Shown: positions 1-29,906 of the stretch, piece after piece
Layout: every line of letters begins with the position of its first letter
Numbering within the stretch: the first letter of the stretch is position 1
Origin: Promethearchaeia archaeon
GTDB lineage: Archaea > Asgardarchaeota > Lokiarchaeia > Sigyniarchaeales > SOKP01
Direction of reading: 5' to 3'
NCBI GenBank assembly: GCA_029856155.1
Contig: JAHQWL010000070.1
Location: 55,740-87,739 of the forward strand
DNA length: 32,000 nt
The notes under the pieces: generated by a model
Told to the model about the DNA's origin: nothing
What the model saw: the letters and a program-made list of their open reading frames with translations, nothing else
Databases searched by the model: none
Program-made: the position numbers and the translations under genes

Positions 1-1179
1 TTTTTTTTTTGACATAATTTTATCTATGGCCATGATAAAATCTTCATAAGAAATAATTTCAGAATTTTTTCTAATAGCATACATTCCTGCTTCTGTACAA
101 ATACCTTTAATGTCAGAACCTGTTGCGCCTTGAGTACGAGCACTTAAATGCTTTATTTCAATATTTGCTTCAATATTTAAATTTTTCATATGAACTCTAA
201 AGATTGATTCTCTGGCTTTTTCATTAGGAATGGGAAATTCTACTATTCGATCAAATCGACCTGGTCTTAATAAAGCGGGATCCAATATATCTGCTCTATT
301 TGTTGCTCCTATAAATTTTATATCACCTCTTTGATCGAATCCATCTAATTCACTTAATAATTGCATTAATGTTCTATTTACTTCTCTATCACCTGAAGTA
401 TCATCTTGCATTCTAACAGCACCTATTGCGTCTAATTCATCAATAAACAAAATAGTAGGTGCTTTCTGTCTTGCTAAACTAAATATTTCTCTAACATATT
501 GCGCACCTTCCCCTATAAATTTTTGAACTAATTCTGTTGCAACCACTTTAATAAATGTTGCATTTGTTTCACGAGCAACAGCTTTAGCTAGTAATGTTTT
601 CCCCGTTCCTGGCAAACCATAAAAAAGAACGCCTTTGGGTGGTTCTATCCCAATCTTTTTGAATAATCCAGGTTTTTTCAATGGTAATTCTATTATTTCT
701 TTAACTTCTTGAATTTGATATTCTAAACCCCCTATATCATCATAGGACACGTCAATTGGACTATCTATTATTTCCATCCCCCTAACAAATGGGCTAAAAT
801 TGGAAGGTAATATTTCCATTATAGCATAGTTTCTTTGATTTAAGGCAACTTGTAAACCAGGTACTAGCTTCTCTTTTTGCAATCTATTGCTAATTCTAAC
901 AATAAAACTAGCGCTAGGTGAACTATCTACAATAGCACGGTCATTATTATCATCTAACATATCAGTTATACATCCCGATATTAATGGAAGTTCACTTAAC
1001 CGTCCAATTTCTTCACGTAAACTTTTTACTTCAAATTCCGCTTTTTTTACTCCGTTATTTAGTAAATTTATTACGATTTTAATATCCTCTATTTTTTTTT
1101 CAAGATGGCGTATATAGGAAGAAATTTTTTCGACATTCTCTGGATCTTTTTTACCATTTTCAATTTCTGTAGAGGTCAT
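1..1179 (-). CDS. pan: Proteasome-activating nucleotidase (PAN / Rpt-like AAA+ ATPase); C-terminal end cut by window edge
   Basis: Absent from the ORF track because it runs off the window. My minus-strand translation from ATG 1179-1177 gives MTSTEIENGKKDPENVEKISSYIRHLEKKIEDIK... (coiled coil). It continues with an OB-like segment (AIVDSSPSASFIVRISNRL...LVPGLQVALNQRNYAIMEILP), Walker A PPKGVLFYGLPGTGKTLLAKAVA (about 560-650), Walker B ILFIDELD and LRPGRFDR. The frame stays open to position 1 with no stop. Confidence 0.9.
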   Translation of the reverse strand, partial: MTSTEIENGKKDPENVEKISSYIRHLEKKIEDIKIVINLLNNGVKKAEFEVKSLREEIGRLSELPLISGCITDMLDDNNDRAIVDSSPSASFIVRISNRLQKEKLVPGLQVALNQRNYAIMEILPSNFSPFVRGMEIIDSPIDVSYDDIGGLEYQIQEVKEIIELPLKKPGLFKKIGIEPPKGVLFYGLPGTGKTLLAKAVARETNATFIKVVATELVQKFIGEGAQYVREIFSLARQKAPTILFIDELDAIGAVRMQDDTSGDREVNRTLMQLLSELDGFDQRGDIKFIGATNRADILDPALLRPGRFDRIVEFPIPNEKARESIFRVHMKNLNIEANIEIKHLSARTQGATGSDIKGICTEAGMYAIRKNSEIISYEDFIMAIDKIMSKKK

Positions 1180-1217
1180 TTTATTATAGGTATTTGATAT
1201 TAGAATTATAATTAAGT

Positions 1218-3146: not shown

Positions 3147-4174
3147 TATCGTTTTATAATTAATATTTTAATTTTGATAAAATTGGAGTAAAATAAAGAC
3201 TTTTTACATTGAATGAAGTTTTTAAGAATTTTATATTATTACTAAAAAGTTTTACACAGAGATTAATCCATCTTAAATTCTCAATTATAATATAATATAT
3301 CATCTATTATTTAATCGAATACCCTTAATATGTTATTTAGATTTAATTTTACTTCATTCTATTGAAAATTTATATTTGAAGTTAAATATAAATAATCTTA
3401 TTTAAAAACTTTTCCTTTAAATTTTTACACTCCAAGACAAATTTTATTTAGATTAGATATCTTGGAATTAATAAAAAAATTGTTCAATCTTAGATATAGG
3501 ATACTAACTTAATCTAATGAGATAAATGTGAGTTTAATTTAACACCTTCTCCTCTTTTTATATGCATTTTGGAATATTAGGTAATTTCTAATAATTATTA
3601 TTTATTTGCGTCCTAAAGGGGTTATTTTTTACAATTGATGGATTTAAATATTAAATTTTTAGAACCTAATCAAGTATTAAATTCCATTTTTAATTAAAGT
3701 AAAAAGTATTACTTTATGTATAATAAAAATTAACTGTTATAATTAATAAAAGTACCCATAATGAGTTTTGAATCGTATGCAATTTCGATTAATCTTCTTT
3801 ATTTTAATTATTGTTATTAAAATTAAAAAACTTTTAATATTGAATAAGTCTTTAATCGTAATTGAAAATATATCATTATTTTAATCTATTATAAATAATA
3901 AAAAAAGAGGTCTAAATCGTGAATACAAAACGAAAATTTGAAAAAAAAAATTCGTGGAAGATGATGATTGGGATGAGGACGTAGAATATGATGATGATAC
4001 AGACTGGGATGAAGACTGGGAAGATTATGATGACTTAAAAGAAGACTTTTTCTAATTGACTTTAGAATGATATTACACCTAATTCGATTAATCCATCCCT
4101 TACAAAATGTTTAATTGATCTAATTTTTTTAATAAATGATTTAATACTCTAAAATATTAAATTTAAATAACAAC

Positions 4175-15917: not shown

Positions 15918-18398
15918 TTAAGCATGTTTCGATTTATTTGAACTACCTATCTTCTCGATTCCCTTAATCCAACTATCCAACTGCTTTAATAATTTCTGTG
16001 TATTTGGTACGCGGCTTATCTGCTCAGAATATAGAGGATAATATAGATATAGACCATTGAGTAATTCAAGTAAAGATTTCTGGCTTTCTGTTTGACCTGA
16101 TATGTCTTTTTTCAACTGAAAAAGAGATCTTTTTTCCTTCTTAGATTTTAAGGCTTTTAAAAAGTTTTTAGTAACAATTATTCTAAAAGCGGAATATTCT
16201 TCAGGTCTAAAGTTAAATAGAGAAAAATTCATGCTATAGTCTGCAAATGGTAAAAATAGTATTCTTTTATCCTCTGGCTCATCTGGGTTATCAATTAAAG
16301 TAAATTCAATATCTCTTTTATCAAGTTCATCTAAAATTGGATATAATTCTCCTGGGTTGATTTTTGTAGCTTGCTCAATTTGATTTGAAATTTCAGAAAT
16401 AGGAAAATTAAATTCGGGAGTTTTTTCAGGATTTTCAATTCGATAAATATATTCTTTTCTTATTATTTGCATAATTTGGCTTTCTAAATCTTCAGCAAGA
16501 TTCTCTGCTGTAAAAGAAAATTGAGTTTCCTTTCTTTTTTGTTTGAAGAATTCACTATCTCTTTGTTTCTTGCTATAATCAGCTGAAAGTGATGAGATAA
16601 AACTATCTGTTGGCTGATCACCTTCTACTGTACCTAATCTACTAGTTTTAGTTTTCTTTTCTATAGCTGTTTCGTATAACCTTTCACTCAAATATCTCCT
16701 AGCTTTCTGATGAGCAACTTCCTTTTTCTCAAAACGCTCAGTTACGGAAACAAAATCAAGCATTTTCACAGGTTTTCCTAAATCTTGCTTTTCCTCCCTT
16801 ATTAGAATGTCCATGTCTTTCTTTACCAATGTATTTAGAAGTGCATAAACATTACTTTTTGATAATTGAGTTGCTTTAATTAATTCTCGTTCAATTATTT
16901 CAATCGGATAAGCCTCGCCTCTTCGAATGTATTCACTTCTAATAATTTTATAGACCTTGTCTAGGCTTCTCTCCTCTTCACTAACAGTTTCTTTTTGTAA
17001 TCTCATAAACATTGAAGTCTCGTGAGGTTTTATATAGTAAACTAATAGTGTGGTACCTAAGAAAAAAATCATAATTACTGAGATAATGTATTTATCCCAC
17101 ATTAAAATTACACCCACATCAGATATTATTTGATTTTGTATTTGATTTGCAAGAGAGAAACGTGTCAATGTTTGAGCGAAAACACAAGCTAAACAAAATA
17201 AAATTAAGCCATCTTTTTTGAAGATAAGTATACGCCAACCAAGAGTTTTCCCTAGTTTCTTTACAATTCGATATAAAAAATACATTGATATGATAAATTC
17301 GAATAGAAAGATATATGAAACAGCAGACCCTGTTGCCCCAATTGTTGCTTTAAAAGCAGTGATTGTCTCATCTTGAAGCAACATATACATACTGATTTGT
17401 AAAATTTGAAAGAAAAAGATAAAAAAAACAATCAAAGCAAAAGTTAAATTATCAAAAGTACCCGCTCTTTTAGTTTCAGCTCGTCGTCTAGTAGATACAT
17501 ATTCAAAAATGATAAAAACTAATGTCATTACTAAACTAAAGTAAATCAAGGGCATAATTCTTGTCATTTCTAAATTATAAACTGCCACAGCACTGCTTGG
17601 ATCACTACGTCCGAAAAATTCCAGAGATAAGATTACTAAAAAACTCCTGTAAAATAATGAGATTACTACAAGCATAGCCAATATTATAAAAGGAATGATA
17701 ATGGCTAAGAAATATCTTGGAATTGAATATTTCTTAATGAATCTGGCTTCTATTTTAGTTGAGAATTTTCTTGAATAAATATAAAACCGACTACTCAATA
17801 AGACTAACCAAATCATCGCTAGGCTTAATAAATAGCTCATAAAGTTGAGACTTGTCCCAACATATAGAAAAAGTATAAATAAAGATAAAATAAGACCACA
17901 ATAAAATATTAATTGCTTAATTGCACTGTTTTTTTCAAAAATAAAGAGCCTAAACTTATCTATACTAAGGAGAATGGATAAAATTAGAAAAAACGCCACA
18001 ATTGTATTTGAAAATGCAAATGGATTACCAAATGTTAAGATATTAATCCAAGACCCTGGAAAATTAATTGCTGTAATTAAAACTAAAGAATAAAAAATGA
18101 ATATTGCATATAATCCAAAAAATTTCTTTTCAAAAGAATATGATTTTGGCTCTTGACCATTAATATACACTTCTTGATGGATAATTTTATCATAAAAACT
18201 AGATTTCATTTTAGATTTTAAAGCACCTAAATTTGCCCTTTTTCGTGAAGAAAAGTCTTTAACCTTCTTTTTTGCCCCTATTTTCCCCCGTTTTGAGGTT
18301 TTTGGTAATTTTAATACTTTAAATTTCTCTTGTTTTTTCTTGGTTTCTTCTTCAGAATCATTTGACTTTTTTGAAGAATTAGATTGCTTTCCAGACAT
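15918..18398 (-). CDS. Large polytopic membrane protein with Lys-rich N-terminus and two C-terminal winged-helix-like modules (function unknown)
   Basis: 826-aa ORF. The basic N-terminal roughly 70 aa are followed by at least 10 hydrophobic helices up to about aa 460. A soluble tail then carries two similar segments, KIIRSEYIRRGEAYPIEIIERELIKATQLSKSNVYALLNTLVKKDMDILIRE and QIIRKEYIYRIENPEK...ISEISNQIEQATKINPGELYPILDELDKRDIEFTLID. Confidence 0.6.
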   Translation of the reverse strand: MSGKQSNSSKKSNDSEEETKKKQEKFKVLKLPKTSKRGKIGAKKKVKDFSSRKRANLGALKSKMKSSFYDKIIHQEVYINGQEPKSYSFEKKFFGLYAIFIFYSLVLITAINFPGSWINILTFGNPFAFSNTIVAFFLILSILLSIDKFRLFIFEKNSAIKQLIFYCGLILSLFILFLYVGTSLNFMSYLLSLAMIWLVLLSSRFYIYSRKFSTKIEARFIKKYSIPRYFLAIIIPFIILAMLVVISLFYRSFLVILSLEFFGRSDPSSAVAVYNLEMTRIMPLIYFSLVMTLVFIIFEYVSTRRRAETKRAGTFDNLTFALIVFFIFFFQILQISMYMLLQDETITAFKATIGATGSAVSYIFLFEFIISMYFLYRIVKKLGKTLGWRILIFKKDGLILFCLACVFAQTLTRFSLANQIQNQIISDVGVILMWDKYIISVIMIFFLGTTLLVYYIKPHETSMFMRLQKETVSEEERSLDKVYKIIRSEYIRRGEAYPIEIIERELIKATQLSKSNVYALLNTLVKKDMDILIREEKQDLGKPVKMLDFVSVTERFEKKEVAHQKARRYLSERLYETAIEKKTKTSRLGTVEGDQPTDSFISSLSADYSKKQRDSEFFKQKRKETQFSFTAENLAEDLESQIMQIIRKEYIYRIENPEKTPEFNFPISEISNQIEQATKINPGELYPILDELDKRDIEFTLIDNPDEPEDKRILFLPFADYSMNFSLFNFRPEEYSAFRIIVTKNFLKALKSKKEKRSLFQLKKDISGQTESQKSLLELLNGLYLYYPLYSEQISRVPNTQKLLKQLDSWIKGIEKIGSSNKSKHA

Positions 18399-18534: not shown

Positions 18535-18831
18535 ATGCATTTTAGTATTGTGAAAATGGAAAGAAAAGTTGAAAACAGAGAAAGCCTTTTAAAGTTAATC
18601 AAAAAAGCTATTGAATTGCTTGCCGAGAAAAATGTATCTCAAACAGTGATTTTATCTTCTTATAAGATTAACTCCGTTTTAAAAGAAAATTACGGCATAA
18701 ATATAAAAGTTGATAAAATTGGTAGAATTCTGAGTAAAATAGCTAAGTTAAATGAATTAAAAAGGCTTAATACTAACATCCCGAAATATAAATTACAAAT
18801 CTCTAAGGTTTCGAGTTTAGAATTCTTTTAA
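18535..18831 (+). CDS. Hypothetical small protein (98 aa), possibly helix-turn-helix-like
   Basis: Intact ORF convergent with the JAMM genes, with its stop 2 nt from the end of the neighbouring gene. The alpha-helical, K-rich pattern (LLKLIKKAIELLAEKNVSQTVIL...KIGRILSKIAKL) is only weakly suggestive of a wHTH. Confidence 0.4.
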   Translation: MHFSIVKMERKVENRESLLKLIKKAIELLAEKNVSQTVILSSYKINSVLKENYGINIKVDKIGRILSKIAKLNELKRLNTNIPKYKLQISKVSSLEFF

Positions 18832-18833
18832 GT

Positions 18834-20246
18834 TTACCTTTCACCTAAATTTCGAAACGTAGTAATTGTTTTTTGAAGTTTCTCAATTAAAACTTTTATT
18901 TCTGAGTTAAATTCTTTGAATGGTTCCAACTCCGTGTTCATTTTTTCGATTTTGTCCTCAAGATTTGTTTGAAATGAAGTATTAGAATTTTCAAACTTTT
19001 TTTCAGTATTTTGAGCTAAAGAATTTACTTGATTATTAGTAATTATTAATTCAGATTGAAGTTTTTTTATTAATTTTTCGATTTGTGAATTTATTTGCAT
19101 AGATTCTTCAACCTTTCCAGATATAGAACTACCTACCAGTTCCATCTCATTTTTAATATTTGATATGTAATCTTCGATGAGATTGTTTAGACTATCAATA
19201 AGAATGTTCTTAGTAGTAGAGATCTCTGTTATGAATTCTTTATTATTTTCAATTCGAGCATTAATATAATTAGATACACTTTTTTTAAACTCAGTTCCCG
19301 TTTCATTCAATGTCATATTGAACCAATTGGCAACTTTATTTATTCCAGATGATATTGCTTCCTTCATTTTATTTATTGACTTACTAATATATTCAGTTCC
19401 TTTAGAGGTTCCTAGATTTACATCTTTAATCCAATCTCCAATTTGAGTTTTGGTAATATTTATGAACATCTCTGAGAGTTTTTCTGTTCCTTGTTGAAAA
19501 CCTAAAACGATTGAGGTTAATTCAGGATTTTCTACAATTTCCTCTTGAACTTTCTGTGTTTCTTCTGTTTTTGGAATTTCTTGTAATTCTCCGAGAGGCT
19601 GTTCAGCAAATTCATTTATTTCCTTAATAAGAATAGGATCTTTTTTCTGAAAATCCTCTGAAAATTTTTGAACCCACTTAAAATACTCTAATGAGTTTGG
19701 AATTTCAATTTTAAATGGTACAGTATGATATTTATCAACTTTAGTATAATCATCTAATCTATAAATTTCAAATCCAAGATTCCCATCCTTCCCCATGAGT
19801 GCATGATCAAACACTATACTAAAACCATAAGGAAATTCTTCCTTTTGGAAATATTGTAAATTTACTACATCACTCTCACTGAGATATAAACCCCAAGAAG
19901 GGTGAGAATGGTAATAGCCTATTAAAGTAGATGAATATTTTTTACCGATCTCAGTAAACAAATCATAAGCATCTTTATCAAATCCAATTTCTGCTTTATC
20001 TCCATGAATTAGAGGAACGGCATTTTCTACAATGACCTTTTCTTCGATATTATCATATTTTCCTATACAGATCCCCATTACTTCTATGCTTTGTTCTAAT
20101 TTATCACTACCAAAACGTAGAACATGTGTTAGCATGTTTCTAAAAGCTTCCTTCTTAATAAATAAATCTCCCTTTTCAGATTTACTTGAACCTTTAAAAC
20201 TTTTTTGATCCGTATTTTGATTAGATTTTTTTTCAACCATTTTCAC
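18834..20246 (-). CDS. JAMM/MPN+ metalloprotease (Rpn11/CSN5/BRCC36-like) with about 270-aa C-terminal coiled-coil region
   Basis: 470-aa ORF. It has the catalytic Glu context IEVMGICIG and a complete JAMM motif YYHSHPSWGLYLSESD (HxH-x7-S-x2-D). After about aa 200 the sequence is long, heptad-like and K/E/N/I-rich. The start is GTG 20246 or ATG 20240, directly abutting the upstream stop. Confidence 0.85.
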   Translation of the reverse strand: MKMVEKKSNQNTDQKSFKGSSKSEKGDLFIKKEAFRNMLTHVLRFGSDKLEQSIEVMGICIGKYDNIEEKVIVENAVPLIHGDKAEIGFDKDAYDLFTEIGKKYSSTLIGYYHSHPSWGLYLSESDVVNLQYFQKEEFPYGFSIVFDHALMGKDGNLGFEIYRLDDYTKVDKYHTVPFKIEIPNSLEYFKWVQKFSEDFQKKDPILIKEINEFAEQPLGELQEIPKTEETQKVQEEIVENPELTSIVLGFQQGTEKLSEMFINITKTQIGDWIKDVNLGTSKGTEYISKSINKMKEAISSGINKVANWFNMTLNETGTEFKKSVSNYINARIENNKEFITEISTTKNILIDSLNNLIEDYISNIKNEMELVGSSISGKVEESMQINSQIEKLIKKLQSELIITNNQVNSLAQNTEKKFENSNTSFQTNLEDKIEKMNTELEPFKEFNSEIKVLIEKLQKTITTFRNLGER

Positions 20247-21725
20247 TCAACCCTCTCCTTTTTCTAACTTTTTTATCGTTGCTAATAAATCTTGCTTTTC
20301 TTTTCTTAAATCTGTGAGATCTTTTTGAAGTGCCCTGATTTCAACTTTTTGTGTATCAATTTTGTTTTGTAATGGTGTTTTTGAGCTCTCTAATAATATT
20401 ATAGCAGCTTTTAGATCTGATAGAAAGCTCTTAGATTCTCTATTTAAATTGATAAAATTCCCTATAATTTTATTAACATTTTTTGTAAATATTCCAGATA
20501 TATCTTCTATGACATTGTCAAATTTTTCTGGGATTATGTTTTCTATTGAATTGAGGGTTTTAGATAAATTTTTTATATTATCACTTTGCCCAACCAAACT
20601 TTTAGAAGATTCTAGAACTAAATTATTTATCGTAGTTAATTTATCTTTTTGGTTATTAAATTGATTTATAATATTATTGACATTTTCCTTTAATTTTTCT
20701 TCAACCATAGATTTAAATTGTTCATTAAGTTCAGTCTTGATATTATCAAATAGATCTTTAAAGTGTTTTTGATCAGAATCAAATTCTTCAAATTTATCAT
20801 CAATGTACATGTCCAATTCATTTAATTTTTCCTTTAAAGAAAATTTAAAATTTTTTTGAAGATTAGAAATACCCTCGCTTAACTTGTCTTTGATTGTAAT
20901 CACATCTTTTCTTATTTGCAGATTATTCTTAACAGTAGTATTTATTAAATTTTCACTCCAAGAATTAAGAAATTTGATAAATGGTACAGTAACAACTTCT
21001 AATAACTTTGTAAATTCTATATTGAGTTCAGATAAGATCTTTGCAGAATCCAATTCTGGTTTCTTTGCAAAAATTTGATTTTCACTTGGAAATGCAATAT
21101 CTCCAAAAAAATCGGGCATTTCATTAATTTCTAGTATGGGCGGTTCTTTTGAATGAACACTATTTATTAAATCGATTAATTTTACATAAAATTCAATACT
21201 ATCAGGAGGTATTACAGTTGCTTTTACCTCGTGATAACCTGACATTTGACCCTTAGCAGGATTATCTAATCGAAATGTACGAAATCCTAAATCTCCCGGT
21301 TTTTCTAAATAAACATGGTCAAAAACAATTCCTATTGCGCTAGGGTTTGGAGTCTGCCAACCAAGTTGATTACGTATATCTGTTGAAGAAAAGAAAATAT
21401 CCAATCCTGGGTGAGAATGGTACCACCCACAACTAAACCAGTTTTTTTCAGCATAAGCAGCATCAACCATAGAAAATGTGACATAATCTTCTGGGGCAAA
21501 CGCAACTTCTATTGCACCACCATGTGAAATAGGAACAACATCTTCAATTATAACATCTCTAATTCCCTTCTTATCAGGTTCACCTTCACCTAAGGACCCT
21601 ATAAGCATTCCCATTACTTCACGGTACTGCCTTTTATCTCTTTCTTTATTTCCAAAACGAAGGACATGTAGTAGCATTTTATAATAAGCTTCTGGTTTAA
21701 TAATAACAGTTTTTTCAGAAGTCAT
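20247..21725 (-). CDS. JAMM/MPN+ metalloprotease (Rpn11/CSN5-like) with about 290-aa C-terminal coiled-coil region
   Basis: 492-aa ORF with REVMGMLIG (catalytic Glu) and CGWYHSHPGLDIFFSSTDIRNQ (HxH-x7-S-x2-D). It shares HVLRFG and the PIL..EINE hinge with the 470-aa paralog. The tail is helical and ends in a clear coiled coil (VEIRALQKDLTDLRKEKQDLLATIKKLEK). Confidence 0.85.
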   Translation of the reverse strand: MTSEKTVIIKPEAYYKMLLHVLRFGNKERDKRQYREVMGMLIGSLGEGEPDKKGIRDVIIEDVVPISHGGAIEVAFAPEDYVTFSMVDAAYAEKNWFSCGWYHSHPGLDIFFSSTDIRNQLGWQTPNPSAIGIVFDHVYLEKPGDLGFRTFRLDNPAKGQMSGYHEVKATVIPPDSIEFYVKLIDLINSVHSKEPPILEINEMPDFFGDIAFPSENQIFAKKPELDSAKILSELNIEFTKLLEVVTVPFIKFLNSWSENLINTTVKNNLQIRKDVITIKDKLSEGISNLQKNFKFSLKEKLNELDMYIDDKFEEFDSDQKHFKDLFDNIKTELNEQFKSMVEEKLKENVNNIINQFNNQKDKLTTINNLVLESSKSLVGQSDNIKNLSKTLNSIENIIPEKFDNVIEDISGIFTKNVNKIIGNFINLNRESKSFLSDLKAAIILLESSKTPLQNKIDTQKVEIRALQKDLTDLRKEKQDLLATIKKLEKGEG

Positions 21726-21951
21726 TGTTCATCACGTTTTATGTTTTAGATTTAGTTTGTTAATGATCTATATATAGTTTAATTTGTTTTAAATATTTGA
21801 ATAAAAAATTGAAAATTAAAACTGAACTTTTAATTTATTCTGTATTTTGTTTTCTTTTTCAGAGTAAACTCTAATTCTCTTTCCTTATTCTCTTATCATT
21901 ATTAAATCAAATAAAAAATAAAAGCAGAATTAAATGTAATTTACTAAATCA

Positions 21952-22608
21952 TTAATCATGAGGTAATGGCTTACCACAGAAAGGACAGAATCGGAAATCT
22001 AAATCTTTACCACAATGTGGACAAAAAGAACCCTCTGTTCCTACTGGTGCTTTTTCCTCAACACCTTCTTTTGGTATTGAAGGTAACTGTCTTTTAGTTT
22101 TAAGAGTTATAGCAGATGAGGCAGCACTAGGAGTTACTTCTTGTCTTGCCTTCACTCTTTCCTTAAAAGCTTGTCTTCGTTCTTCCTCAAGTTCTTCTTG
22201 TGTTTTAGTACCTTCTGTTTTTACCCATCCTTGAACTTTGGGTCTTTTTAATTCACTTTCGGGAACCCTTTCCAATTCTACTTCTTTAGTTTCTGAAATT
22301 GGAGCAACTAATTTTCTCTCATCCTTCTTCTGTAGGGCTTGTTTTACAAGAGCTTGAGTTGTTTTCATTACTTGATGGGGATTAATATTAGGAATCGCTA
22401 CAGTTCTAAGAACCCAACCTACAATAAGATTTTGATTTGGAAAATCGCCTTCGACATCTTCATCTTTAAAAACATAAGAATCAATAATATCTTTTCCTTT
22501 TAACATGCGAACAGCCCATTTCTCATTAATTAAACCTAATTGTAGTCTGTAAGATGTTCCAGGTACGCCAAGCTGGCTCGTTAATGGTTCGAATCCTCTC
22601 TCTGTCAC
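21952..22608 (-). CDS. Hypothetical protein: about 95-aa N-terminal globular domain, charged E/K linker, C-terminal Zn-ribbon
   Basis: 218-aa ORF with a C-terminal CPHCGKDLDFRFCPFCGKPL (CxxC-x8-CxxC). The middle is E/K/R/Q-rich (TQEELEEERRQAFKERVKARQE). I recognise no family for the N-terminal domain. Confidence 0.55.
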   Translation of the reverse strand: MTERGFEPLTSQLGVPGTSYRLQLGLINEKWAVRMLKGKDIIDSYVFKDEDVEGDFPNQNLIVGWVLRTVAIPNINPHQVMKTTQALVKQALQKKDERKLVAPISETKEVELERVPESELKRPKVQGWVKTEGTKTQEELEEERRQAFKERVKARQEVTPSAASSAITLKTKRQLPSIPKEGVEEKAPVGTEGSFCPHCGKDLDFRFCPFCGKPLPHD

Positions 22609-22817
22609 TTCAAATCACTTTTTTTCCATAAATTATATGATTTCAGTAATATAATAATGATAAATTTTGAATTTATATTATTTTTTATTTATAGTAAAAA
22701 TTGGTTTTAAAGATAAAAATTTTTTTCGGATAAATTAGAGATTAAAAACACATAAATACAAAAAATTGTATTAATTTGTAAAAAGCATCCTTAAAAAAAA
22801 TGTAAAGTGTTTTTAAC

Positions 22818-23768
22818 ATGGTCGTTATAATCCCAAAGAAAGAATATTTAACTTTTGTCGCTGCTGCTGTTAGATACGCTAATGCACGTATTCCTAAGGA
22901 TGATTGGTTAGAAGTTAGTGGGGTTTTTATAGGTAAAAATGAGGGTGATAATGTCAGAATTACCACTACTTATCCAATCATGCACCAAGAGTTAGATAAA
23001 GATGCTGTAATTGATCAATATAAATGGTCTGATGAAGATTATATTGCTCTTAGTATAATTGATGACGAAGCATTTTCAGAAGGAGAATTTACAGTAGGAT
23101 GGTGGCATTCACATCCGGGATTTAAGGTAATGATGTCTCATATTGATATCCGAACAACCCTATCTTATCAGCAAAATAATCCTTTAGCTATTTCACTTGT
23201 ATTTAACCCTACGAGATTAATACGTCAAATTGAAGTAGCTAACAAGAAAGGAGATCCCGATAAACAGTTAAAAAATGATCCTGGTTTTAAAATTTATCGG
23301 TTAGATGATACAAATCAAGGATTAGAAGCATCTTATCACACTGTAGAGTATATAATAGAAGGGTATGAAAGTATGGAGCAGTTAATTACTCAAACTCAGA
23401 AATTTATTGTTGATGTAACTATTTTTTTCCCAAAGGATAATGTTCCGCAAACTTATGAAAAATTCGTTGACGATCGAATAACTCAACTGAATTCAATATT
23501 CCTTGGTACTGAAGAATATTTAACTACATTGACCAATCGTGGTGAAAAACAAAGGATCCCAGAAGTTTTAGAAAATCAAAGCAAAGAAATTAGGAAATTT
23601 GTAGCTGAAACTATTATTAAGATAGAAAATGTTAAGGAATTCATGAATTATTTAGAATATAAAGAAAGAGAAACAATAATTCCACAAATCAAGACTATAA
23701 TAAACAAGTGGGATGAACAGGTTGCTGAATTAGATAAGAAAATAAAACAACTGAAGAAGAAATTTTAA
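22818..23768 (+). CDS. JAMM/MPN+ metalloprotease with shorter C-terminal coiled-coil tail
   Basis: 316-aa ORF with LEVSGVFIG (Glu) and VGWWHSHPGFKVMMSHIDIRTT (HxH-x7-S-x2-D). The C-terminal roughly 130 aa are helical and end in QVAELDKKIKQLKKKF. Confidence 0.85.
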   Translation: MVVIIPKKEYLTFVAAAVRYANARIPKDDWLEVSGVFIGKNEGDNVRITTTYPIMHQELDKDAVIDQYKWSDEDYIALSIIDDEAFSEGEFTVGWWHSHPGFKVMMSHIDIRTTLSYQQNNPLAISLVFNPTRLIRQIEVANKKGDPDKQLKNDPGFKIYRLDDTNQGLEASYHTVEYIIEGYESMEQLITQTQKFIVDVTIFFPKDNVPQTYEKFVDDRITQLNSIFLGTEEYLTTLTNRGEKQRIPEVLENQSKEIRKFVAETIIKIENVKEFMNYLEYKERETIIPQIKTIINKWDEQVAELDKKIKQLKKKF

Positions 23769-23892
23769 CTCTAATAATTTTCATCTTATTTTTAGTTTTG
23801 ATAAATTTTTATTTGATTACGCTTTTTCTTGATTAACTACACGATTATTTTAAAAAAAAATATCAGAGAAATTTTAGTATATAGTCATTATC

Positions 23893-26097
23893 ATGAGAAA
23901 AATTAATTTTCCTTTTACAGCGATTCTTGGTCAAGAGAAAATGAAAATGGGGTTAATCTTGAACGTAATTGACCCTCAAATAGGTGGGATCTTGTTAACT
24001 GGCCAACAAGGTACTGGAAAAAGTACCGCTGTAAGATCTCTCGTAGAACTGATGCCTCAAATTGAAATTGTTGCGGGTTGTGAATTTTCATGTGACCCTA
24101 ATTCAGATATTGATGATTTATGCCAAAATTGTATAGGAAAAAAGGAAAATGAGCAAATAGTCGCAGAATTGCGTGATATGTGGCTTGTAAATCTACCTTT
24201 AGGAGTCACAGAAGATATGGTTTGTGGAAGTCTATCAATAGATAAGGTATTAACTGAGGGAATAAGAGCTTTACACCCTGGATTACTCGCGAAAGCAAAT
24301 AGAGGTATTTTATATGTAGATGAAATTAATTTACTCCAAGATCATATAGTTGATGTTCTTTTAGATTCTGCAGCGTCAGGGGTAAATATCATAGAAAGAG
24401 AAGGAATCTCTATATCTCATCCTTCAAGATTCGTTCTGGTTGGTTCAATGAATCCAGAAGAAGGTGATTTAAGGCCACAAATAGCAGATCGCTTAGGATT
24501 AGAAGTTAGAATTAAAGCCCCTAGAGACTCAGAATTAAGAGCAGAAATAACTAAAAGGGTTATAGAATTTGATGATCATCCAAAAGAATTTATTAAAAAT
24601 TTTGAAGATGAACAAGAAAAATTAAGACAACAAATCCTTAATGCTCGTGATATTTTAAAGGAAGTTCAAATCCCTAGTTCTGTATATGAATTTGTATCTA
24701 AAATTGTAAATGAGTTAGAAATCTTTTCTCAAAGAGCAGATATTACGTTTATTCGATGTGCGAGAGCTCATGCTGCTTTAAATGGTAGAAAGGATATAGT
24801 TGAAGAAGATCTTAATGTAGCTATGGATCTAGTATTCGAACATAGAATTCAATCACTTCATTATGAAATGACACCGATAGAAATAAAAGCAAAAATAGCT
24901 GAAGTATATGGCAAAATAAGAGAGGCTTATGAAAATACAAAAGTACTCCAACCTAATAGAGAAACAGAAGGCCCTTTAAAGCATTCAGATGAACATCAAA
25001 AAGAGTTCAAACGTCAATCTGTTGATCCAGATAAAGTTGATATTCCTGAGACAAGAGAACAAAAACTACCCCCGCCAAAATATCCCGATGATAAAAGAAG
25101 AAATCCTAAACCAGCGGGAGGGTGGAAGGTAAAAAATATTCCTCATATTGATGATCTTAAATTTTTCCAAGCTAAAAATGGAACGATACCTTTTATCTAT
25201 AAAATGGAAAAAAAAATGACTTCAATTCTAGATAGTATTAGAAAAGACAGGAAAATTACGGATTATGGTGGAAGAGGAATAGGGCGTCGGATTAAAATAT
25301 CTTCTTCTCAAAAAGGGAGGTATGTATCATACAGGACACCTATTCGTGAAGAACCAAGAAGTATCGCTTTAGACGCCACAATTAGGAATTATTTAAAAAA
25401 TGTTGAGTATAATGAAACTGTAATAGATTTTCCTATACACTTTAATAAGTATGATCTGATGGATAAAATCTATGAATATCGGGCCCCTTTGGTTATGTTT
25501 TTCGTATTAGATAGTTCAGCCTCGATGTACTACGTAATAAAACAAATGACCGATGTAATATTATCTCTACACCAAGAAGGATACAGAAAGAGAGATAAAA
25601 TAGCTCTAATTATATTTCGAGGTAAGGATGCTGTTGTTTTACAAAAACCTACAGTAAATTTTAAGATGGCGGTAAATAAATTGAAAAAAATAGAAGGAAA
25701 GTCTTATACGCCTATGGCTGCGGCATTGAAAAAGGTTTCAGAACTTATTAGAATTGAGCAACTAAAAAATCGGCAATCAGTTCCAGTAGCTTTCATTTTA
25801 TCTGATTGTGGTGCTAATATCTCCGTTAAATATCCGGATTTAATTGCCCAAATCGAAACGGATTATACTTTAATTACGCATGAATTAAAAGAATTAACAA
25901 AAAAATTATCAAAACAAAAAATACATATGGTAGTTCTGGAACCAAGAAAATCTTATGCAACACACGCTCTTGGAGTACACACATATTCGGCAGATAAAAT
26001 TAAAAGGAATTTTAAAAAATATGGGAATGCTGAAATTTTTAAATTTAATAAGTATGATCCTAAATCCTTAATCTTAGAATTGAAAAAAATGCTATAA
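23893..26097 (+). CDS. ChlI/ChlD (BchI/BchD)-type AAA+ ATPase fused to a C-terminal von Willebrand A domain
   Basis: 734-aa ORF. The N-terminus FPFTAILGQEKMKMGLILNVIDPQIGGILLTGQQGTGKSTAVRSL (Walker A), ILYVDEINLL (Walker B) and RFVLVGSMNPEEGDLRPQIADRLGL closely follow BchI/ChlI blocks. A Pro/Lys-rich linker (KLPPPKYPDDKRRNPKPAGG) follows. The C-terminal vWA domain has the MIDAS motif VLDSSASM plus a downstream SYTPMAAAL. Confidence 0.85.
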   Translation: MRKINFPFTAILGQEKMKMGLILNVIDPQIGGILLTGQQGTGKSTAVRSLVELMPQIEIVAGCEFSCDPNSDIDDLCQNCIGKKENEQIVAELRDMWLVNLPLGVTEDMVCGSLSIDKVLTEGIRALHPGLLAKANRGILYVDEINLLQDHIVDVLLDSAASGVNIIEREGISISHPSRFVLVGSMNPEEGDLRPQIADRLGLEVRIKAPRDSELRAEITKRVIEFDDHPKEFIKNFEDEQEKLRQQILNARDILKEVQIPSSVYEFVSKIVNELEIFSQRADITFIRCARAHAALNGRKDIVEEDLNVAMDLVFEHRIQSLHYEMTPIEIKAKIAEVYGKIREAYENTKVLQPNRETEGPLKHSDEHQKEFKRQSVDPDKVDIPETREQKLPPPKYPDDKRRNPKPAGGWKVKNIPHIDDLKFFQAKNGTIPFIYKMEKKMTSILDSIRKDRKITDYGGRGIGRRIKISSSQKGRYVSYRTPIREEPRSIALDATIRNYLKNVEYNETVIDFPIHFNKYDLMDKIYEYRAPLVMFFVLDSSASMYYVIKQMTDVILSLHQEGYRKRDKIALIIFRGKDAVVLQKPTVNFKMAVNKLKKIEGKSYTPMAAALKKVSELIRIEQLKNRQSVPVAFILSDCGANISVKYPDLIAQIETDYTLITHELKELTKKLSKQKIHMVVLEPRKSYATHALGVHTYSADKIKRNFKKYGNAEIFKFNKYDPKSLILELKKML

Positions 26098-26140
26098 TTA
26101 TTAAAAATTGCTTTAATGTTTCATTTTTATTTATTATATA

Positions 26141-27382
26141 ATGGTGAAAAATTCAAATTCAGTCTTAGTTGTTGGATTTAATATACGATCATTAGCTTAT
26201 TCCTTAAAGAAAGCGGGATATAACGTGTATGCTGTAGATTTCTTTGGTGATTTAGATCTTTATCCATATGTAGAAGATTCTATTATCGTTGTAAAAGAAT
26301 TAAGTGCTAATTATAACACAATGAAAGATACGTATGGTAAATTTCTAGTTGATTTTACGATAAGTTTACACCGTAAACATCGAGATATAAAGTTTTTATT
26401 GATTGGGAGTGGCTTAGATGATGAATATAACGGAAGAAAATTGATATTTGATGAGATTAAGAATTTTAATACGATTAGTGTCAATAATAGATTAAAAACG
26501 ATAGAGAAATCAAGAGATATTGAATATTTGTTTCATTATCTGAAATCTCAAGGTTATAAAGTGCCAAAGTATTACTCTTTTGAAAAATTTGAATTAAAAA
26601 GTAATACTTTGGACTATCCCTTTGTTTTTAAAAAAAAAAGAAGTGCTGGTGGTACGAACGTTTATAAAATTAAGGATAAAGCGAACTTAATTTCTCAAAT
26701 AGAAATTTTGGAAAATAAGTTGTTTACATCATCAGAATGGTTAGTTCAAGAATACGTTGAAGGAATTCCTATTAGTTGCACAGTGATTTCAGATGGAAAT
26801 GAGTGTGAAGTAATTACTATTAATCGTCAAATTATCGGAGAAAAGTTTCTTAATGCTCCTAAGGATTTTATGTATTGTGGCAATATCGTTCCTGCTGGAT
26901 TATCAGCTGATGAAGAAAAAATCATATCCGAGATTTCATTAATTTTAACAAAAGAATTAGGTCTAAAAGGAATTAATGGATTTGATTTTGTTTTAAAAGA
27001 TAAATATCCTTATTTAATGGAATGTAATCCAAGAATTCCTGGCTCAATTAGAGCTTCAGAATCTATTCTGAATTTGAACCTCTTAGATCTACATATAAGA
27101 TGCTTTATAAACAACAAATGGGATAATATTAAAAAATTGATTAAATCTGCGATACCTAAAAATTTTGCAACAAAATTGGTATTTTTTGCTCCAAAAAATA
27201 TAGAAAAGAGTATTTTAACAAAAATAAATAATCTTGAATTTGTACATGATAAAACCGAACTAACTAAAGATGTTTTAAGAGGTGAACCTTTATGTACGGT
27301 CTTATATGTAGCTAAAAACTACTCTAAATCTTTTAATGGAGCGAAAAAGATCATAAACAGAATTAAGAGAATTATTGGATAA
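26141..27382 (+). CDS. ATP-grasp superfamily ligase (substrate unknown)
   Basis: 413-aa ORF with an N-terminal Rossmann-like VLVVGFNIRSLAYSLKKAGYNVYAVD. The central segment is FVFKKKRSAGGTNVYKI / WLVQEYVEGIPIS. The C-terminal GINGFDFVLKDKYPYLMECNPRIPGS is typical of the ATP-grasp Mg/ATP site. Confidence 0.75.
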   Translation: MVKNSNSVLVVGFNIRSLAYSLKKAGYNVYAVDFFGDLDLYPYVEDSIIVVKELSANYNTMKDTYGKFLVDFTISLHRKHRDIKFLLIGSGLDDEYNGRKLIFDEIKNFNTISVNNRLKTIEKSRDIEYLFHYLKSQGYKVPKYYSFEKFELKSNTLDYPFVFKKKRSAGGTNVYKIKDKANLISQIEILENKLFTSSEWLVQEYVEGIPISCTVISDGNECEVITINRQIIGEKFLNAPKDFMYCGNIVPAGLSADEEKIISEISLILTKELGLKGINGFDFVLKDKYPYLMECNPRIPGSIRASESILNLNLLDLHIRCFINNKWDNIKKLIKSAIPKNFATKLVFFAPKNIEKSILTKINNLEFVHDKTELTKDVLRGEPLCTVLYVAKNYSKSFNGAKKIINRIKRIIG

Positions 27383-28112
27383 TAGCCTTAATTTTAGCGA
27401 TGTAAGATCCTAGTTTCCTTTCATCAGACTCCGGAACAGCAAGAGCTAAGACTCTGTTTTCATCTAAATCATGTATTATGACGGAACCATTCTCTCCTCC
27501 AATAATACAGTACTCCATATGACTTTCTAATAATACGCCAGATAAATTATATAATGCAGCTACCATAGCTGAAAGAATTGGTTCGGGCATTGTTGATTGT
27601 ATCTTAATTGGTAATCCGTCTTTAGTAATAATTGCTAAAACGAGAGTATTTGGTATCGCTCTTTTCAAACCTTTAAATATTTCTTCTTTAAGAATATCTG
27701 ATGTCTCTGCAATAGCGGTTATTTGTAGGCTTAATTTTTGTAGTCTATTTATAAATGAATCTAATCCTTCAAGTTCAGCTAATTCTCGATTTAAATAAGT
27801 AATCATAGTAATATTTTCTGTTAAAATTGAAAGGACAATTTTTTCCTTAGAAAAAATTAAATTATAAGAAACGTCTTGATTTAATGAATCTCTTAACATT
27901 TTAGATGAAAGGAATACAAGTGAGCTATTTGCTGCTGTAATTTCACCCGTTGTCATTTTAATTTCTTCTTTTTTGAATTTGCTTGCTATTTTTGTTCCCT
28001 CGGCGGTTCCAACATTGATACCCAGAATAGCTGGTGCTGAATCAAGCTCTTTTTCTATTAGTTCAGATACATCTGATTCTAATTCTTCGATTATTTTTTC
28101 TTGCTTTTCCAT
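27372..28112 (-). CDS. Tandem Roadblock/LC7 (MglB-like) domain protein
   Basis: 246-aa ORF. The second half, TLVLAIITKDGLPIKIQSTMPEPILSAMVAALYNLSGVLL...GSVIIHDLDENRVLALAV, is a good Roadblock/LC7 pattern. The first half, ILGINVGTAEGTKIASKF...ITAANSSLVFLSSKML...IVLSILTENITMITYL, looks like a more divergent copy. Confidence 0.65.
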   Translation of the reverse strand: MEKQEKIIEELESDVSELIEKELDSAPAILGINVGTAEGTKIASKFKKEEIKMTTGEITAANSSLVFLSSKMLRDSLNQDVSYNLIFSKEKIVLSILTENITMITYLNRELAELEGLDSFINRLQKLSLQITAIAETSDILKEEIFKGLKRAIPNTLVLAIITKDGLPIKIQSTMPEPILSAMVAALYNLSGVLLESHMEYCIIGGENGSVIIHDLDENRVLALAVPESDERKLGSYIAKIKAIIQ

Positions 28113-28373: not shown

Positions 28374-29174
28374 ATGGATTACGAAATAAAAAAACAATTA
28401 GAGACTAAGGATAATCTTATAAAATTAAAAGATGAACAAGTAAAAACTCTTGAAAATTCTTTACAGTTAAAAGATGAGCAAATCAAAACTCTTGAGAAGA
28501 CAATAAAAACTAAGGACGAAGAAACTAAAACTTTAGAAAAAACTGTCGCATTAAAAGAAGAAGAAATTAAAAAATTAAGTTCTTCTGCCATTGATCCAAA
28601 TTTTTTAAAAGATAAAGATGATACAATTATTCAGCTTCAGAAAGAGATTGAAATATTAAATGATGAATTAGCTAAAGCGGATGAAGATTTAGAAGGTTTA
28701 GAATTAGAAAATGAGAAACTAAAAAATGCTCAAACTAGTTCTAAAGAAGTAAAAATCATAGATTTTACAAATACTCAGATTAAAAAATCTGAAATTCTAG
28801 AAAAAATGAAAACTTTGTTAGAAAATGCTATAGCGAATGTTACCATTGTTGTTCCTAGTATTGAAGATTTGCAGGAACTCTGTTTATATGAACTTAGATC
28901 TTCTGTTAGTATGAAGATTGCTTGTTCAATTAATCCCGGAATTGAGGAGCATAATGAACTTCTGGAAGAATTTGAAAGTTTAGATAACATTTCCCTTAGA
29001 AATTACGAAAGAAAAGATAGATATGTCATAACTAGGGATGGAGAGGAATTACTTTTTGCTGCAATTGGTAACTCTGATGAGAATAATCTCGTATTCCATA
29101 CAAGAGACCCAAAACATATCACTTTATTCAGTTCTTTAGCCACTGATGGCTGGATCCAGAGTAGAAAAGTATAG
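28374..29174 (+). CDS. Coiled-coil protein with 14-aa tandem repeats and an uncharacterised C-terminal globular domain
   Basis: 266-aa ORF. The N-terminal roughly 130 aa are coiled coil and include the KDEQ[VI]KTLE repeats. The C-terminal roughly 120 aa (NVTIVVPSIEDLQELCLYELRSSVSMKIACSINP...RYVITRDGEELLFAAIG...LVFHTRDPKHITLF) look globular, with no confident family. Confidence 0.5.
   Translation: MDYEIKKQLETKDNLIKLKDEQVKTLENSLQLKDEQIKTLEKTIKTKDEETKTLEKTVALKEEEIKKLSSSAIDPNFLKDKDDTIIQLQKEIEILNDELAKADEDLEGLELENEKLKNAQTSSKEVKIIDFTNTQIKKSEILEKMKTLLENAIANVTIVVPSIEDLQELCLYELRSSVSMKIACSINPGIEEHNELLEEFESLDNISLRNYERKDRYVITRDGEELLFAAIGNSDENNLVFHTRDPKHITLFSSLATDGWIQSRKV
28428..28577 (+). repeat. 42-nt (14-codon) tandem repeat, about 3.5 copies, inside the coiled-coil CDS
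   Basis: The peptide units KDEQVKTLENSLQL / KDEQIKTLEKTIKT / KDEETKTLEKTVAL / KEEEIKKL are encoded by similar 42-nt DNA units (aaagatgaacaagtaaaaactcttgaaaa... / aaagatgagcaaatcaaaactcttgagaa...). Confidence 0.7.
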
Positions 29175-29177
29175 AAT

Positions 29178-29906
29178 TTAGAAGATCGGGCACTTCTCTT
29201 TTACACATTTATCATTAATGTGTGAAAAACAACACCTTTGAAAGGTGTAACTTAAATCTATATTAAACTTTTCTTTTAAGAATTTTAAGGTTTCGATGAT
29301 TGATAATCGAACGGACCTTTTACAACAATGTTCTAAATTATCGGCAATTTTATTTAATGATCGAGATGTTATTTGATTTGCTAATGTCCTTGGAAAATCT
29401 GTAGATGGTGTTGCTCCTGTAAAAATACTAATTGCTACACCCGAACCCATTCCAGCACCACACGAACCGTAAAAACCACACCACCCTCCTGGAATTTTAG
29501 AGGCTCTTCGTATTGCTTCTTTAATATCAAATAAATTTATCTCGTTTCCATCAGGTTTTTTTATATTGTTGTTTTTAAGAGCTGTTAAAATAACTGCGGG
29601 GGTTAAGACATGATGCTCTGGACCATAAAATTTGAATTTAGGATGCTTCATAATTAAGTCCGCTAATTCAAATGGATTTTTAATCTTTGTTTCCTCACAA
29701 ATTCTTTCAATAATTTCAATAGGGCCTTTGGAATGACAAGCATCGCAAATGTAATGCCCTTCTTCACAATAAATATTAGAATTAAATATATATCCACAAA
29801 ATTCACATTCAAGTTTTCTATAGTCTTCCTGTTTTGTTCCATAAATTAAACTTTTATGGCAAATCTCACACTTATCACTTTTTTTTTCAGACATTAATAA
29901 TCGCAA
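29178..29906 (-). CDS. Cys-rich putative metal-binding protein (family not confidently assigned)
   Basis: 242-aa ORF with N-terminal cysteine pairs CEICHKSL...CEFCGY...CDACH (Zn-ribbon-like) and a C-terminal GGWCGFYGSCGAGMGSGVAI Gly/Cys-rich motif plus CCKRS. It lies 9 nt upstream of the PHP phosphatase gene end on the same strand. Confidence 0.5.
   Translation of the reverse strand: MRLLMSEKKSDKCEICHKSLIYGTKQEDYRKLECEFCGYIFNSNIYCEEGHYICDACHSKGPIEIIERICEETKIKNPFELADLIMKHPKFKFYGPEHHVLTPAVILTALKNNNIKKPDGNEINLFDIKEAIRRASKIPGGWCGFYGSCGAGMGSGVAISIFTGATPSTDFPRTLANQITSRSLNKIADNLEHCCKRSVRLSIIETLKFLKEKFNIDLSYTFQRCCFSHINDKCVKEKCPIF

Follow-up and report, generated by a model that had tools for sequence, protein, structure and literature searches.

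In eukaryotes, JAMM deubiquitinases function only as MPN+/MPN- dimers within large complexes. In the BRCC36-Abraxas/Abro1 assemblies (BRCA1-A and BRISC) the MPN+/MPN- pair is joined by helices that follow the MPN domains on their C-terminal side, and a vWA subunit is part of the complex. Fuchs et al. (2018; PMC6043591) state that an organization of the Rpn11-Rpn8, CSN5-CSN6 or BRCC36-Abraxas type is not known in archaea, and describe the Rpn11 protein of Caldiarchaeum (CsRpn11) as being without Ins-2 and the C-terminal helices. CsRpn11 is a proven deubiquitinase and pro-ubiquitin processing enzyme (PMC6043591, PMC5654768), and Hennell James et al. (2017; PMC5654768) emphasize that it acts without partners; the archaeal enzymes characterized to date are short, stand-alone proteins. 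Here we analyze a stretch of 32,000 nucleotides (the window; GC content ~29%) from a metagenome-assembled genome of Promethearchaeota (Lokiarchaeia), in which the genes for three JAMM proteins with long helical tails (JAMM-1, JAMM-2 and JAMM-3) lie in one block with genes for a zinc-ribbon protein (ZnR), a ChlI/ChlD-type AAA+-vWA fusion (ChlID), an ATP-grasp ligase and a tandem Roadblock/LC7 protein (Table 1). An earlier note on the same DNA had read this block as a possible multi-subunit MPN-vWA isopeptidase complex, perhaps with the ATP-grasp enzyme as the writer of the bond that the JAMM proteins erase.

The JAMM-2/JAMM-1 pair and JAMM-3

The genes for JAMM-2 and JAMM-1 abut stop to start in the window, and they are adjacent in 40/40 loci of our comparison. 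For this comparison, one genome per GTDB species was scanned with an alignment of the JAMM-3 family, which returned 79 loci; every window gene was mapped onto these and onto 6 additional loci, and the comparison as a whole covers ~40 species genomes and 80 metagenomic loci (individual loci are cited by L numbers). The two proteins are 30% identical (E 3e-34), and their alignment extends into the tail. JAMM-2 keeps the E/HxH/S/D residues in 46/46 assessable orthologs and relatives, and among proteins of solved structure it comes closest to CsRpn11, a proven deubiquitinase (E 1.7e-10). By contrast, the catalytic set of JAMM-1 is complete in only 10/41 orthologs, with the Glu lost in 9 and a Zn ligand lost in 22. 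This decay has followed at least eight substitution patterns (EIRTT, ESHSE, EHRSD, QCHVD, NRSND, SSRNN and others), yet the JAMM-1 reading frame is intact in every ortholog, at ~450-470 aa. Of all genes in the region JAMM-1 has evolved fastest, with a median ortholog identity of 40%, as against 47% for JAMM-2, 70% for ZnR, 72% for JAMM-3 and 80% for ChlID, the most conserved gene of the region.

Because the active-site residues have been lost in about three quarters of the orthologs, catalysis by JAMM-1 appears to be dispensable. The combination of an always-catalytic JAMM-2 with a co-encoded JAMM-1 that can do without catalysis but is not itself dispensable is the signature of the eukaryotic MPN+/MPN- pairs, and from their sequences JAMM-2 and JAMM-1 look like such a pair. 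In this respect the earlier proposal of an MPN complex is strengthened, since the repeated loss of the JAMM-1 site makes the two proteins look like a dedicated MPN dimer; its extension to ChlID and the ATP-grasp ligase found no support, as set out below. The JAMM-1 site of the window reads EHHSD, and the E...HxH-x7-S-x2-D catalytic and Zn-binding motif is complete in all three JAMM proteins encoded here. The three complete sites described by the earlier note are thus true of this window but are not a family property; the complete JAMM-1 site is a trait of the clade to which the window belongs.

All three proteins score above the gathering cutoff of the Pfam JAB family (PF01398; 22.5 bits), with 35.8 bits for JAMM-1, 44.0 for JAMM-2 and 50.8 for JAMM-3, and they are paralogous as had been supposed (JAMM-1/JAMM-2 as given above, JAMM-2/JAMM-3 E 5e-24, JAMM-1/JAMM-3 E 2e-11). 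Their nearest solved relatives are CSN5, Rpn11 and CsRpn11, which places the proteins in the eukaryote-type, ubiquitin-type MPN+ group and agrees with their previous description as eukaryote-type; BRCC36, also among these relatives, is only weakly similar in sequence (E 2e-5 to 1e-3). Against the NCBIfam desampylase model, built on the halophile enzyme, they reach only 18-20 bits where the cutoff is 130, and no SAMP-type JAMM protein is present among their solved-structure sequence and fold matches. Database records label these proteins 'Mov34/MPN/PAD-1 family' or 'hypothetical'. They are best classed as predicted JAMM/MPN+ isopeptidases whose tailed, paired and triplicated architecture is specific to the lineage, and not as part of a new MPN-vWA-ATP-grasp system.

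The tails had been described as heptad-like. They do consist of strongly amphipathic helices, but not of canonical heptads: their hydrophobic period is 3.60-3.70 (3.60 in JAMM-2), far above shuffled sequences, as in hendecad- or bundle-like helices. The coiled-coil protein encoded by a neighboring gene, CC266, shows in contrast the canonical heptad period of 3.45. The JAMM-1 tail is likewise helical and comprises ~270 aa, and the tails of the long-tailed JAMM proteins give weak apolipoprotein-like matches in Pfam.

JAMM-3 differs from the pair in its slow evolution. It is 71-86% identical across more than 120 clusters, its catalytic residues are kept in 41/41 orthologs, and it carries a conserved insert with a KKGDP motif after an MPN beta-strand. 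In an AlphaFold2 model (predicted TM score 0.70) the C-terminal tail is predicted with confidence to be a bundle of four long helices (186-315; predicted lDDT, pLDDT, ~95), and Foldseek matches this model to CSN5, BRCC36, eIF3h and Rpn11/8, weakly (E ~1e-5, TM ~0.3). A subclade of JAMM-3 orthologs (L033-L040 and L063) carries one extra residue within the metal-site motif, HSHPGFKVMLSGFGD, so that S-x3-D replaces S-x2-D; the remaining catalytic residues are all kept.

The divergent arrangement of ZnR and JAMM-3 is adjacent in 36/38 loci that hold both genes. ZnR, a family restricted to Promethearchaeota, consists of a conserved N-terminal domain of ~95 aa, conserved linear motifs and a C-terminal Zn-ribbon recognized by Pfam; the N-terminal domain gave no Pfam match, and a ZnR profile found no match among the sequences in the PDB. 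Where the two arms of the block have split, ZnR remains beside JAMM-2/JAMM-1 in some loci (L053, L054, L061) and beside JAMM-3 in others (L042, which is MK-D1, and L044). In the cultured Promethearchaeum syntrophicum MK-D1 (NZ_CP042905) and its relatives (the MK-D1 clade; L042, L044 and L045) the JAMM-3 ortholog is 41-43% identical to that of the window and has kept only ZnR as a neighbor, followed by a glycoside hydrolase and TFB; the MK-D1 homolog of ZnR retains the N-terminal domain and the linear motifs, with a coiled coil in place of the Zn-ribbon. Encoded between the two JAMM modules, ZnR may be an adaptor common to both. A zinc-finger protein encoded downstream of the JAMM gene in another long-tailed clade (M1) was considered as a ZnR homolog and rejected, as hhalign gave a probability of 40% and aligned the Zn knuckle only.

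Consideration of the described MPN systems shows where the window agrees with them and where it does not. Like Rpn11-Rpn8 and CSN5-CSN6, it encodes two paralogous MPN proteins, of which one is strictly catalytic and the other tolerates loss of the Zn site, with helices that continue C-terminally beyond the MPN core, and CSN5 and Rpn11 are the best sequence and fold matches. Unlike those systems, the tails of the pair are far longer (270-290 aa), there is no PCI-domain partner in the window (Pfam finds no PCI match in any protein of the block) and the JAMM-1 site of the window is still complete. BRCC36 is among the top fold matches of JAMM-3, and a related Asgard lineage pairs a long-tailed JAMM protein with a vWA protein and a gene of the E2 fold, which recalls BRISC and BRCA1-A; however, in our window the adjacent vWA domain is that of a ChlI/D AAA+ motor, for which a linkage to the JAMM genes is not supported, and the window has no UEV/BRE-like subunit (neither Pfam nor NCBIfam gave a UQ_con or UEV match). 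CsRpn11 and the short JAMM proteins of ubiquitin operons are of the same MPN+ subtype. They are proteins of ~200 aa that stand alone, without C-terminal helices, beside the genes for ubiquitin, E1 and E2. The window instead encodes three paralogs of 316-492 aa, each with a long tail, and has no ubiquitin-system gene next to them. ChlID resembles ChlI/ChlD (BchI/BchD, TIGR02442) in its ChlI-type AAA+ domain, Pro-rich linker and MIDAS vWA domain, but it scores below the NCBIfam cutoff, has no CobN/ChlH within 10 kb and is paired with an ATP-grasp_3 ligase. In the literature searched we found no paper on a JAB/vWA/ATP-grasp/chelatase system, or on tailed or paired Asgard MPN proteins.

Gene order and the ChlID/ATP-grasp unit

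The earlier note had asked whether the gene order is conserved in related genomes. The order of the window is kept in ~30 Lokiarchaeales-type genomes, in which JAMM-3 is 52-83% identical, and runs MFS, TM826, s98, JAMM-1, JAMM-2, ZnR, JAMM-3, ChlID, ATP-grasp, Roadblock, CC266, (DUF5714), PHP; elsewhere the genes are partly scattered, as seen in the MK-D1 clade, in loci with insertions and in loci with split arms. JAMM-3 and ChlID are adjacent in 31/39 loci holding both, and 8 more loci have a JAMM-3-like gene with no ChlID nearby. Unrelated genes, often on the opposite strand, have been inserted between JAMM-3 and ChlID (8 loci) and between ChlID and the ATP-grasp gene (3 loci), in ~10 genomes altogether; their products include a radical-SAM enzyme, an SDR, a Ras-like GTPase, LVIVD surface proteins and a VapBC-like pair. 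The arms of the block lie apart in L004, L021 and L029/L061, and a separated arm is also seen in L053 and L054; in L029/L061 they lie ~20 kb apart and inverted on the same contig.

Flanking genes without any apparent relation to the JAMM proteins are at least as stable as the block itself, with MFS-TM826 adjacent in 21/21 loci and DUF5714-PHP in 14/14. The conservation thus reaches plainly unrelated genes, and the order that the JAMM genes share with ChlID and the ATP-grasp gene is a case of region-wide synteny within one order-level clade. We conclude that the block is made of separate units in a slowly rearranging neighborhood, namely ZnR with the three JAMM genes, ChlID with the ATP-grasp gene, and Roadblock with CC266.

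The ChlID protein has intact Walker A (GQQGTGKS), Walker B (ILYVDE) and MIDAS (DSSAS) motifs, matches ChlI structures in the PDB with 336 bits (4e-99), and scores 591.8 bits against TIGR02442, below the cutoff of 779.45. By these sequence criteria it is a genuine ChlI-type AAA+ motor with a vWA domain. The earlier note had considered that ChlID and the ATP-grasp gene might always travel with CobN-type or cofactor-biosynthesis genes; in no locus examined does a gene for a CobN or ChlH partner lie within 10 kb of ChlID. The ATP-grasp protein gives 105 bits with PF02655, and even with its closest NCBIfam models (PylC, MfnD and Ddl) it stays far below the respective cutoff. It had been compared with protein-tail ligases of the RimK, LysX and TTL kind, but no family-level similarity was found beyond the generic ATP-grasp fold (17.3 bits with the RimK family PF08443, cutoff 21; 31 bits with TIGR00768, cutoff 143).

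ChlID and the ATP-grasp gene are adjacent in 32/35 loci, and the pair is strongly conserved, with orthologs only in Promethearchaeota among the homologs listed, which were saturated by orthologs of at least 56% identity. This pairing of ChlID with an ATP-grasp_3 ligase is not described in the literature searched. The two probably form a separate two-gene unit; because ChlID belongs to the ChlI/D family, our guess for this unit would be a metal- or cofactor-related role. They are tied to the JAMM genes by position alone and are probably bystanders.

Ubiquitin-system genes and competing explanations

No gene for a ubiquitin-like protein (Ubl), E1 or E2 was found in the window by inspection of open reading frames or by profile scans, in agreement with the earlier note, and none lies within 10 kb of the JAMM genes in ~40 Lokiarchaeales loci. 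The note had taken this to leave the tag without a candidate. That argument is weakened, as genes for a ubiquitin-like protein (C-terminal QAGG), for an E2-like protein and for ThiF are scattered in MK-D1; with the genes dispersed in this way, their absence from a 32-kb window is uninformative. Short JAMM proteins (~200 aa) from the same scan lie in Ub-E2-E1 operons of Hodarchaeota, Nitrososphaerota and Caldiarchaeum, in which the ubiquitin has a terminal GG, the E2 is of the UQ_con family and the E1 is a ThiF protein. In one locus, L048, the gene for a 487-aa long-tailed JAMM protein sits between a divergent E2 gene and an E1 gene and is followed by a vWA-RING gene (for a vWA protein that has an Ssl1-like domain and a RING finger); the tail of this JAMM protein gives the same weak Apolipoprotein and Baculo_PEP_C matches as JAMM-1 of the window. 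In a metagenome scan, all 8 further loci whose sequence continues beyond the JAMM gene (L087-L094) have the vWA-RING gene beside a long-tailed JAMM gene; an E2 gene is found in L088, L096 and L097 and an E1 gene in L090. A vWA-RING partner of an archaeal ubiquitin system was not found in the literature searched. From these associations, the likeliest substrates of the JAMM proteins would be ubiquitin-like conjugates or precursors.

The loci of this uncultured Asgard lineage (L048:318-5685, L087-L094, L096, L097) share a layout of a divergent UQ_con E2 gene, a JAMM gene of ~490-525 aa, sometimes a ThiF E1 gene, the vWA-RING gene and a gene for a membrane protein of ~196 aa. In another set of loci (L123-L162, for example L130:5365-10060) the long-tailed JAMM proteins comprise 505-550 aa and are always followed by a zinc-finger protein of ~225 aa, which has two C-x2-C-x9-H-x3-C fingers and an acidic linker and by eye recalls UBZ fingers, a ubiquitin-binding type. 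A TPR protein is often encoded upstream of the JAMM gene in these loci, and a 240-aa protein with a weak PCI match (E 6e-4, below the cutoff) is often found nearby.

On balance, we consider it somewhat probable that the window is a syntenic Lokiarchaeial stretch in which an MPN module lies beside unrelated units. In this arrangement JAMM-2 is predicted to be the obligate Zn-isopeptidase of the JAMM-2-JAMM-1 bicistron, and the two proteins would form a heterodimer through their MPN domains and ~280-aa amphipathic helical tails, much as in Rpn11-Rpn8, CSN5-CSN6 and BRCC36-Abraxas; the main part of JAMM-1 would be that of a scaffold or an activator. JAMM-3, slow in its evolution and equipped with a separate C-terminal helical bundle, would be an MPN+ enzyme expressed divergently from ZnR, which could serve JAMM-2/JAMM-1 and JAMM-3 alike. 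We infer that the substrates are ubiquitin-like conjugates or precursors, made by E1, E2 and E3 enzymes whose genes lie at other sites of the genome. The Roadblock and coiled-coil genes would be further neighbors.

A tentative extension of this reading, which we regard as possible but doubtful, is that Lokiarchaeia have evolved, or have kept from an Asgard ancestor, a dedicated MPN+/MPN- deubiquitinase pair whose members are joined by their long helical tails, along with a third tailed MPN+ enzyme and a Zn-ribbon adaptor, as an archaeal counterpart of the eukaryotic pairs, and that related lineages couple a tailed JAMM protein to a vWA-RING E3, an E2 and an E1. If this is true, the pair, found in the archaea most closely related to eukaryotes and caught while one partner is losing its active site, would be a tractable model for the origin of catalytic/pseudo-catalytic MPN dimers, and it could represent an intermediate between the stand-alone archaeal Rpn11 and the architecture of the proteasome lid, CSN or BRISC. 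Orthologs of the JAMM proteins are present in the cultured MK-D1 and in Lokiarchaeum, which makes the hypothesis directly testable.

Several observations weigh against our interpretation. As the JAMM-1 site is complete in the window, the pair encoded here could be two active enzymes. In a crude neighbor-joining tree, calculated without support values, the JAMM-1/JAMM-2 duplication looks specific to Lokiarchaeia, and the resemblance to the eukaryotic pairs may thus be convergent, not ancestral; the same tree places the L048-type JAMM proteins in a different clade. The similarity between the tails of the long-tailed clades may be compositional, and two other such clades sit among housekeeping genes with no neighbor from the ubiquitin system. 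The AlphaFold2 model of ZnR is unusable (pLDDT 51, with the N-terminal domain below 50). Finally, the order of JAMM-3, ChlID and ATP-grasp persists over a deep divergence, with JAMM-1 down to 27% identity, and some functional link is possible.

This last point leads to the reading of the earlier note, in which everything from JAMM-1 to the ATP-grasp ligase, and perhaps Roadblock, forms one MPN-vWA isopeptidase complex together with a writer whose protein-tail product the JAMM proteins erase. The order is indeed kept in ~30 species-level genomes, even where JAMM-1 is only 27-40% identical; ChlID lies on the same strand as JAMM-3 and 124 nt downstream of it, its intact MIDAS vWA domain could bind a partner and it has no CobN nearby, and in the related lineage a vWA protein does pair with long-tailed JAMM proteins. 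That partner, however, is a RING E3-like protein and not a ChlI/D motor, and the ATP-grasp ligase shows no specific similarity to RimK, TTL or LysX. The unrelated flanking genes are equally or more syntenic, the insertions at both junctions are heterogeneous, the arms stand apart in L004, L021 and L029/L061, and the MK-D1 clade retains JAMM-3 and ZnR with no ChlID or ATP-grasp gene nearby. We therefore regard a single complex as quite improbable, and treating ChlID and the ATP-grasp ligase as probable bystanders keeps a misleading 'writer-eraser' annotation from spreading.

It is less improbable, though still unlikely, that the JAMM proteins are not deubiquitinases at all and instead act on other linkages (SAMP/Urm1-type tags, N-terminal extensions or peptides), or act chiefly as helical scaffolds within some other assembly in the manner of eIF3f/h and the MPN domain of Prp8. 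The lack of Ubl, E1 and E2 genes within 10 kb in ~40 Lokiarchaeales genomes, the housekeeping surroundings of the two other long-tailed clades, the tolerated loss of catalysis in JAMM-1 and the Foldseek matches to eIF3h and Rpn8 are all consistent with this, and the apolipoprotein-like matches in the tails suggest surface or membrane binding. Yet JAMM-2 and JAMM-3 keep their catalytic residues in all orthologs, their nearest solved relatives are ubiquitin and Nedd8 isopeptidases that include a proven archaeal deubiquitinase, the desampylase scores are far below the cutoff, and a related long-tailed JAMM gene adjoins E2, E1 and vWA-RING genes. JAB domains also occur in several defense systems, and PADLOC gives weak JAB matches (best 29 bits), which could point to an anti-virus defense locus or a mobile island of the JAB-containing kind (CBASS Cap3, Bil-like). 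PADLOC found no match to any other defense-system component, and the genes are single-copy, highly conserved and fixed in chromosomal position across the entire order, the reverse of what defense islands show; we consider this origin very improbable.

Gene layout and other neighbors

The open reading frames, strands, gaps, 209-nt spacer and motif strings of the earlier note were all found where it had placed them, and every one of its domain calls was upheld by Pfam and NCBIfam: across the block, Pfam recognizes JAB in all three JAMM proteins, Mg_chelatase/AAA_lid_2/VWA_2, ATP-grasp_3, Robl_LC7 and a zinc-ribbon. The gene coordinates are collected in Table 1. For JAMM-1 the JGI gene call starts two codons further inward, at an ATG, and gives 468 aa. 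The gap between JAMM-3 and ChlID is 124 nt and that between ChlID and the ATP-grasp gene 43 nt, and the ATP-grasp and Roadblock genes overlap convergently by 11 nt. A PAN gene, which the note had placed far from the block, is present as a PAN-type gene at the left edge of the window. A scan for sigma-70 promoters and terminators found fewer sites than in shuffled sequences, and is irrelevant for an archaeon.

Table 1. Positions of the genes and other features of the window.
Feature	Position	Strand	Description
PAN-type proteasome-activating AAA ATPase	~1-1180	-	seen by translating the window edge; gene cut by the edge
Methyltransferase/ATP-grasp fusion	1218-3146	-	642 aa
Segment without long reading frame	3147-4174		~1 kb
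TM826	15918-18398	-	membrane protein with cytosolic winged-helix segments; beside JAMM-2/JAMM-1
s98	18535-18831	+	small protein (98 aa); between TM826 and JAMM-1
JAMM-1	18834-20246	-	470 aa from a GTG start
JAMM-2	20247-21725	-	492 aa; putative MPN+ catalytic subunit with ~290-aa amphipathic helical tail
ZnR	21952-22608	-	218 aa; Zn-ribbon protein
Divergent intergenic region	22609-22817	.	209 nt; AT-rich ZnR/JAMM-3 spacer; sequence read directly
JAMM-3	22818-23768	+	316 aa; MPN+ protein
ChlID	23893-26097	+	734 aa; ChlI/ChlD-type AAA+-vWA fusion
ATP-grasp_3 ligase	26141-27382	+	413 aa
Tandem Roadblock/LC7 protein	27372-28112	-	246 aa; convergent with the ATP-grasp gene
CC266	28374-29174		266 aa
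DUF5714 protein	29178-29906	-	Cys-rich

TM826 (826 aa) is a polytopic membrane protein, and two of its cytosolic segments resemble winged helices, with weak PadR/IclR matches. Together with s98 it stays beside JAMM-2/JAMM-1 after the arms have split (L051, L053, L054, L060, L061 and L069). This could reflect a membrane anchor for the pair or merely synteny; the MFS gene beside TM826 and s98 is equally syntenic, and the co-travel with the JAMM pair is thus not specific evidence.

At the left of the window, the gene next to PAN encodes a fusion of a SAM-dependent methyltransferase with an ATP-grasp domain of the D-Ala-D-Ala-ligase type, the second, unrelated ATP-grasp of the window. It is followed by a segment at ~20% GC with no open reading frame of at least 80 aa, in which no Rfam family or tRNA was found. 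At the right, the DUF5714 protein matches its family with 181 bits and also matches MbdU, a model for a metal-binding selenoprotein, at 151 bits, far below the cutoff of 600.

The tandem Roadblock assignment holds for the whole protein, which scores 27.6 bits with Robl_LC7 (cutoff 23), but its halves are individually weak (17.1 and 14.9 bits), each aligning to nearly the full profile. The Roadblock and CC266 genes form a divergent pair, and CC266 combines its canonical heptad coiled coil with a C-terminal domain that has a faint TrmB-like match. This pair lies 7 kb from JAMM-3 in L045, and several genomes carry an inserted nucleotidyltransferase gene between its two members.

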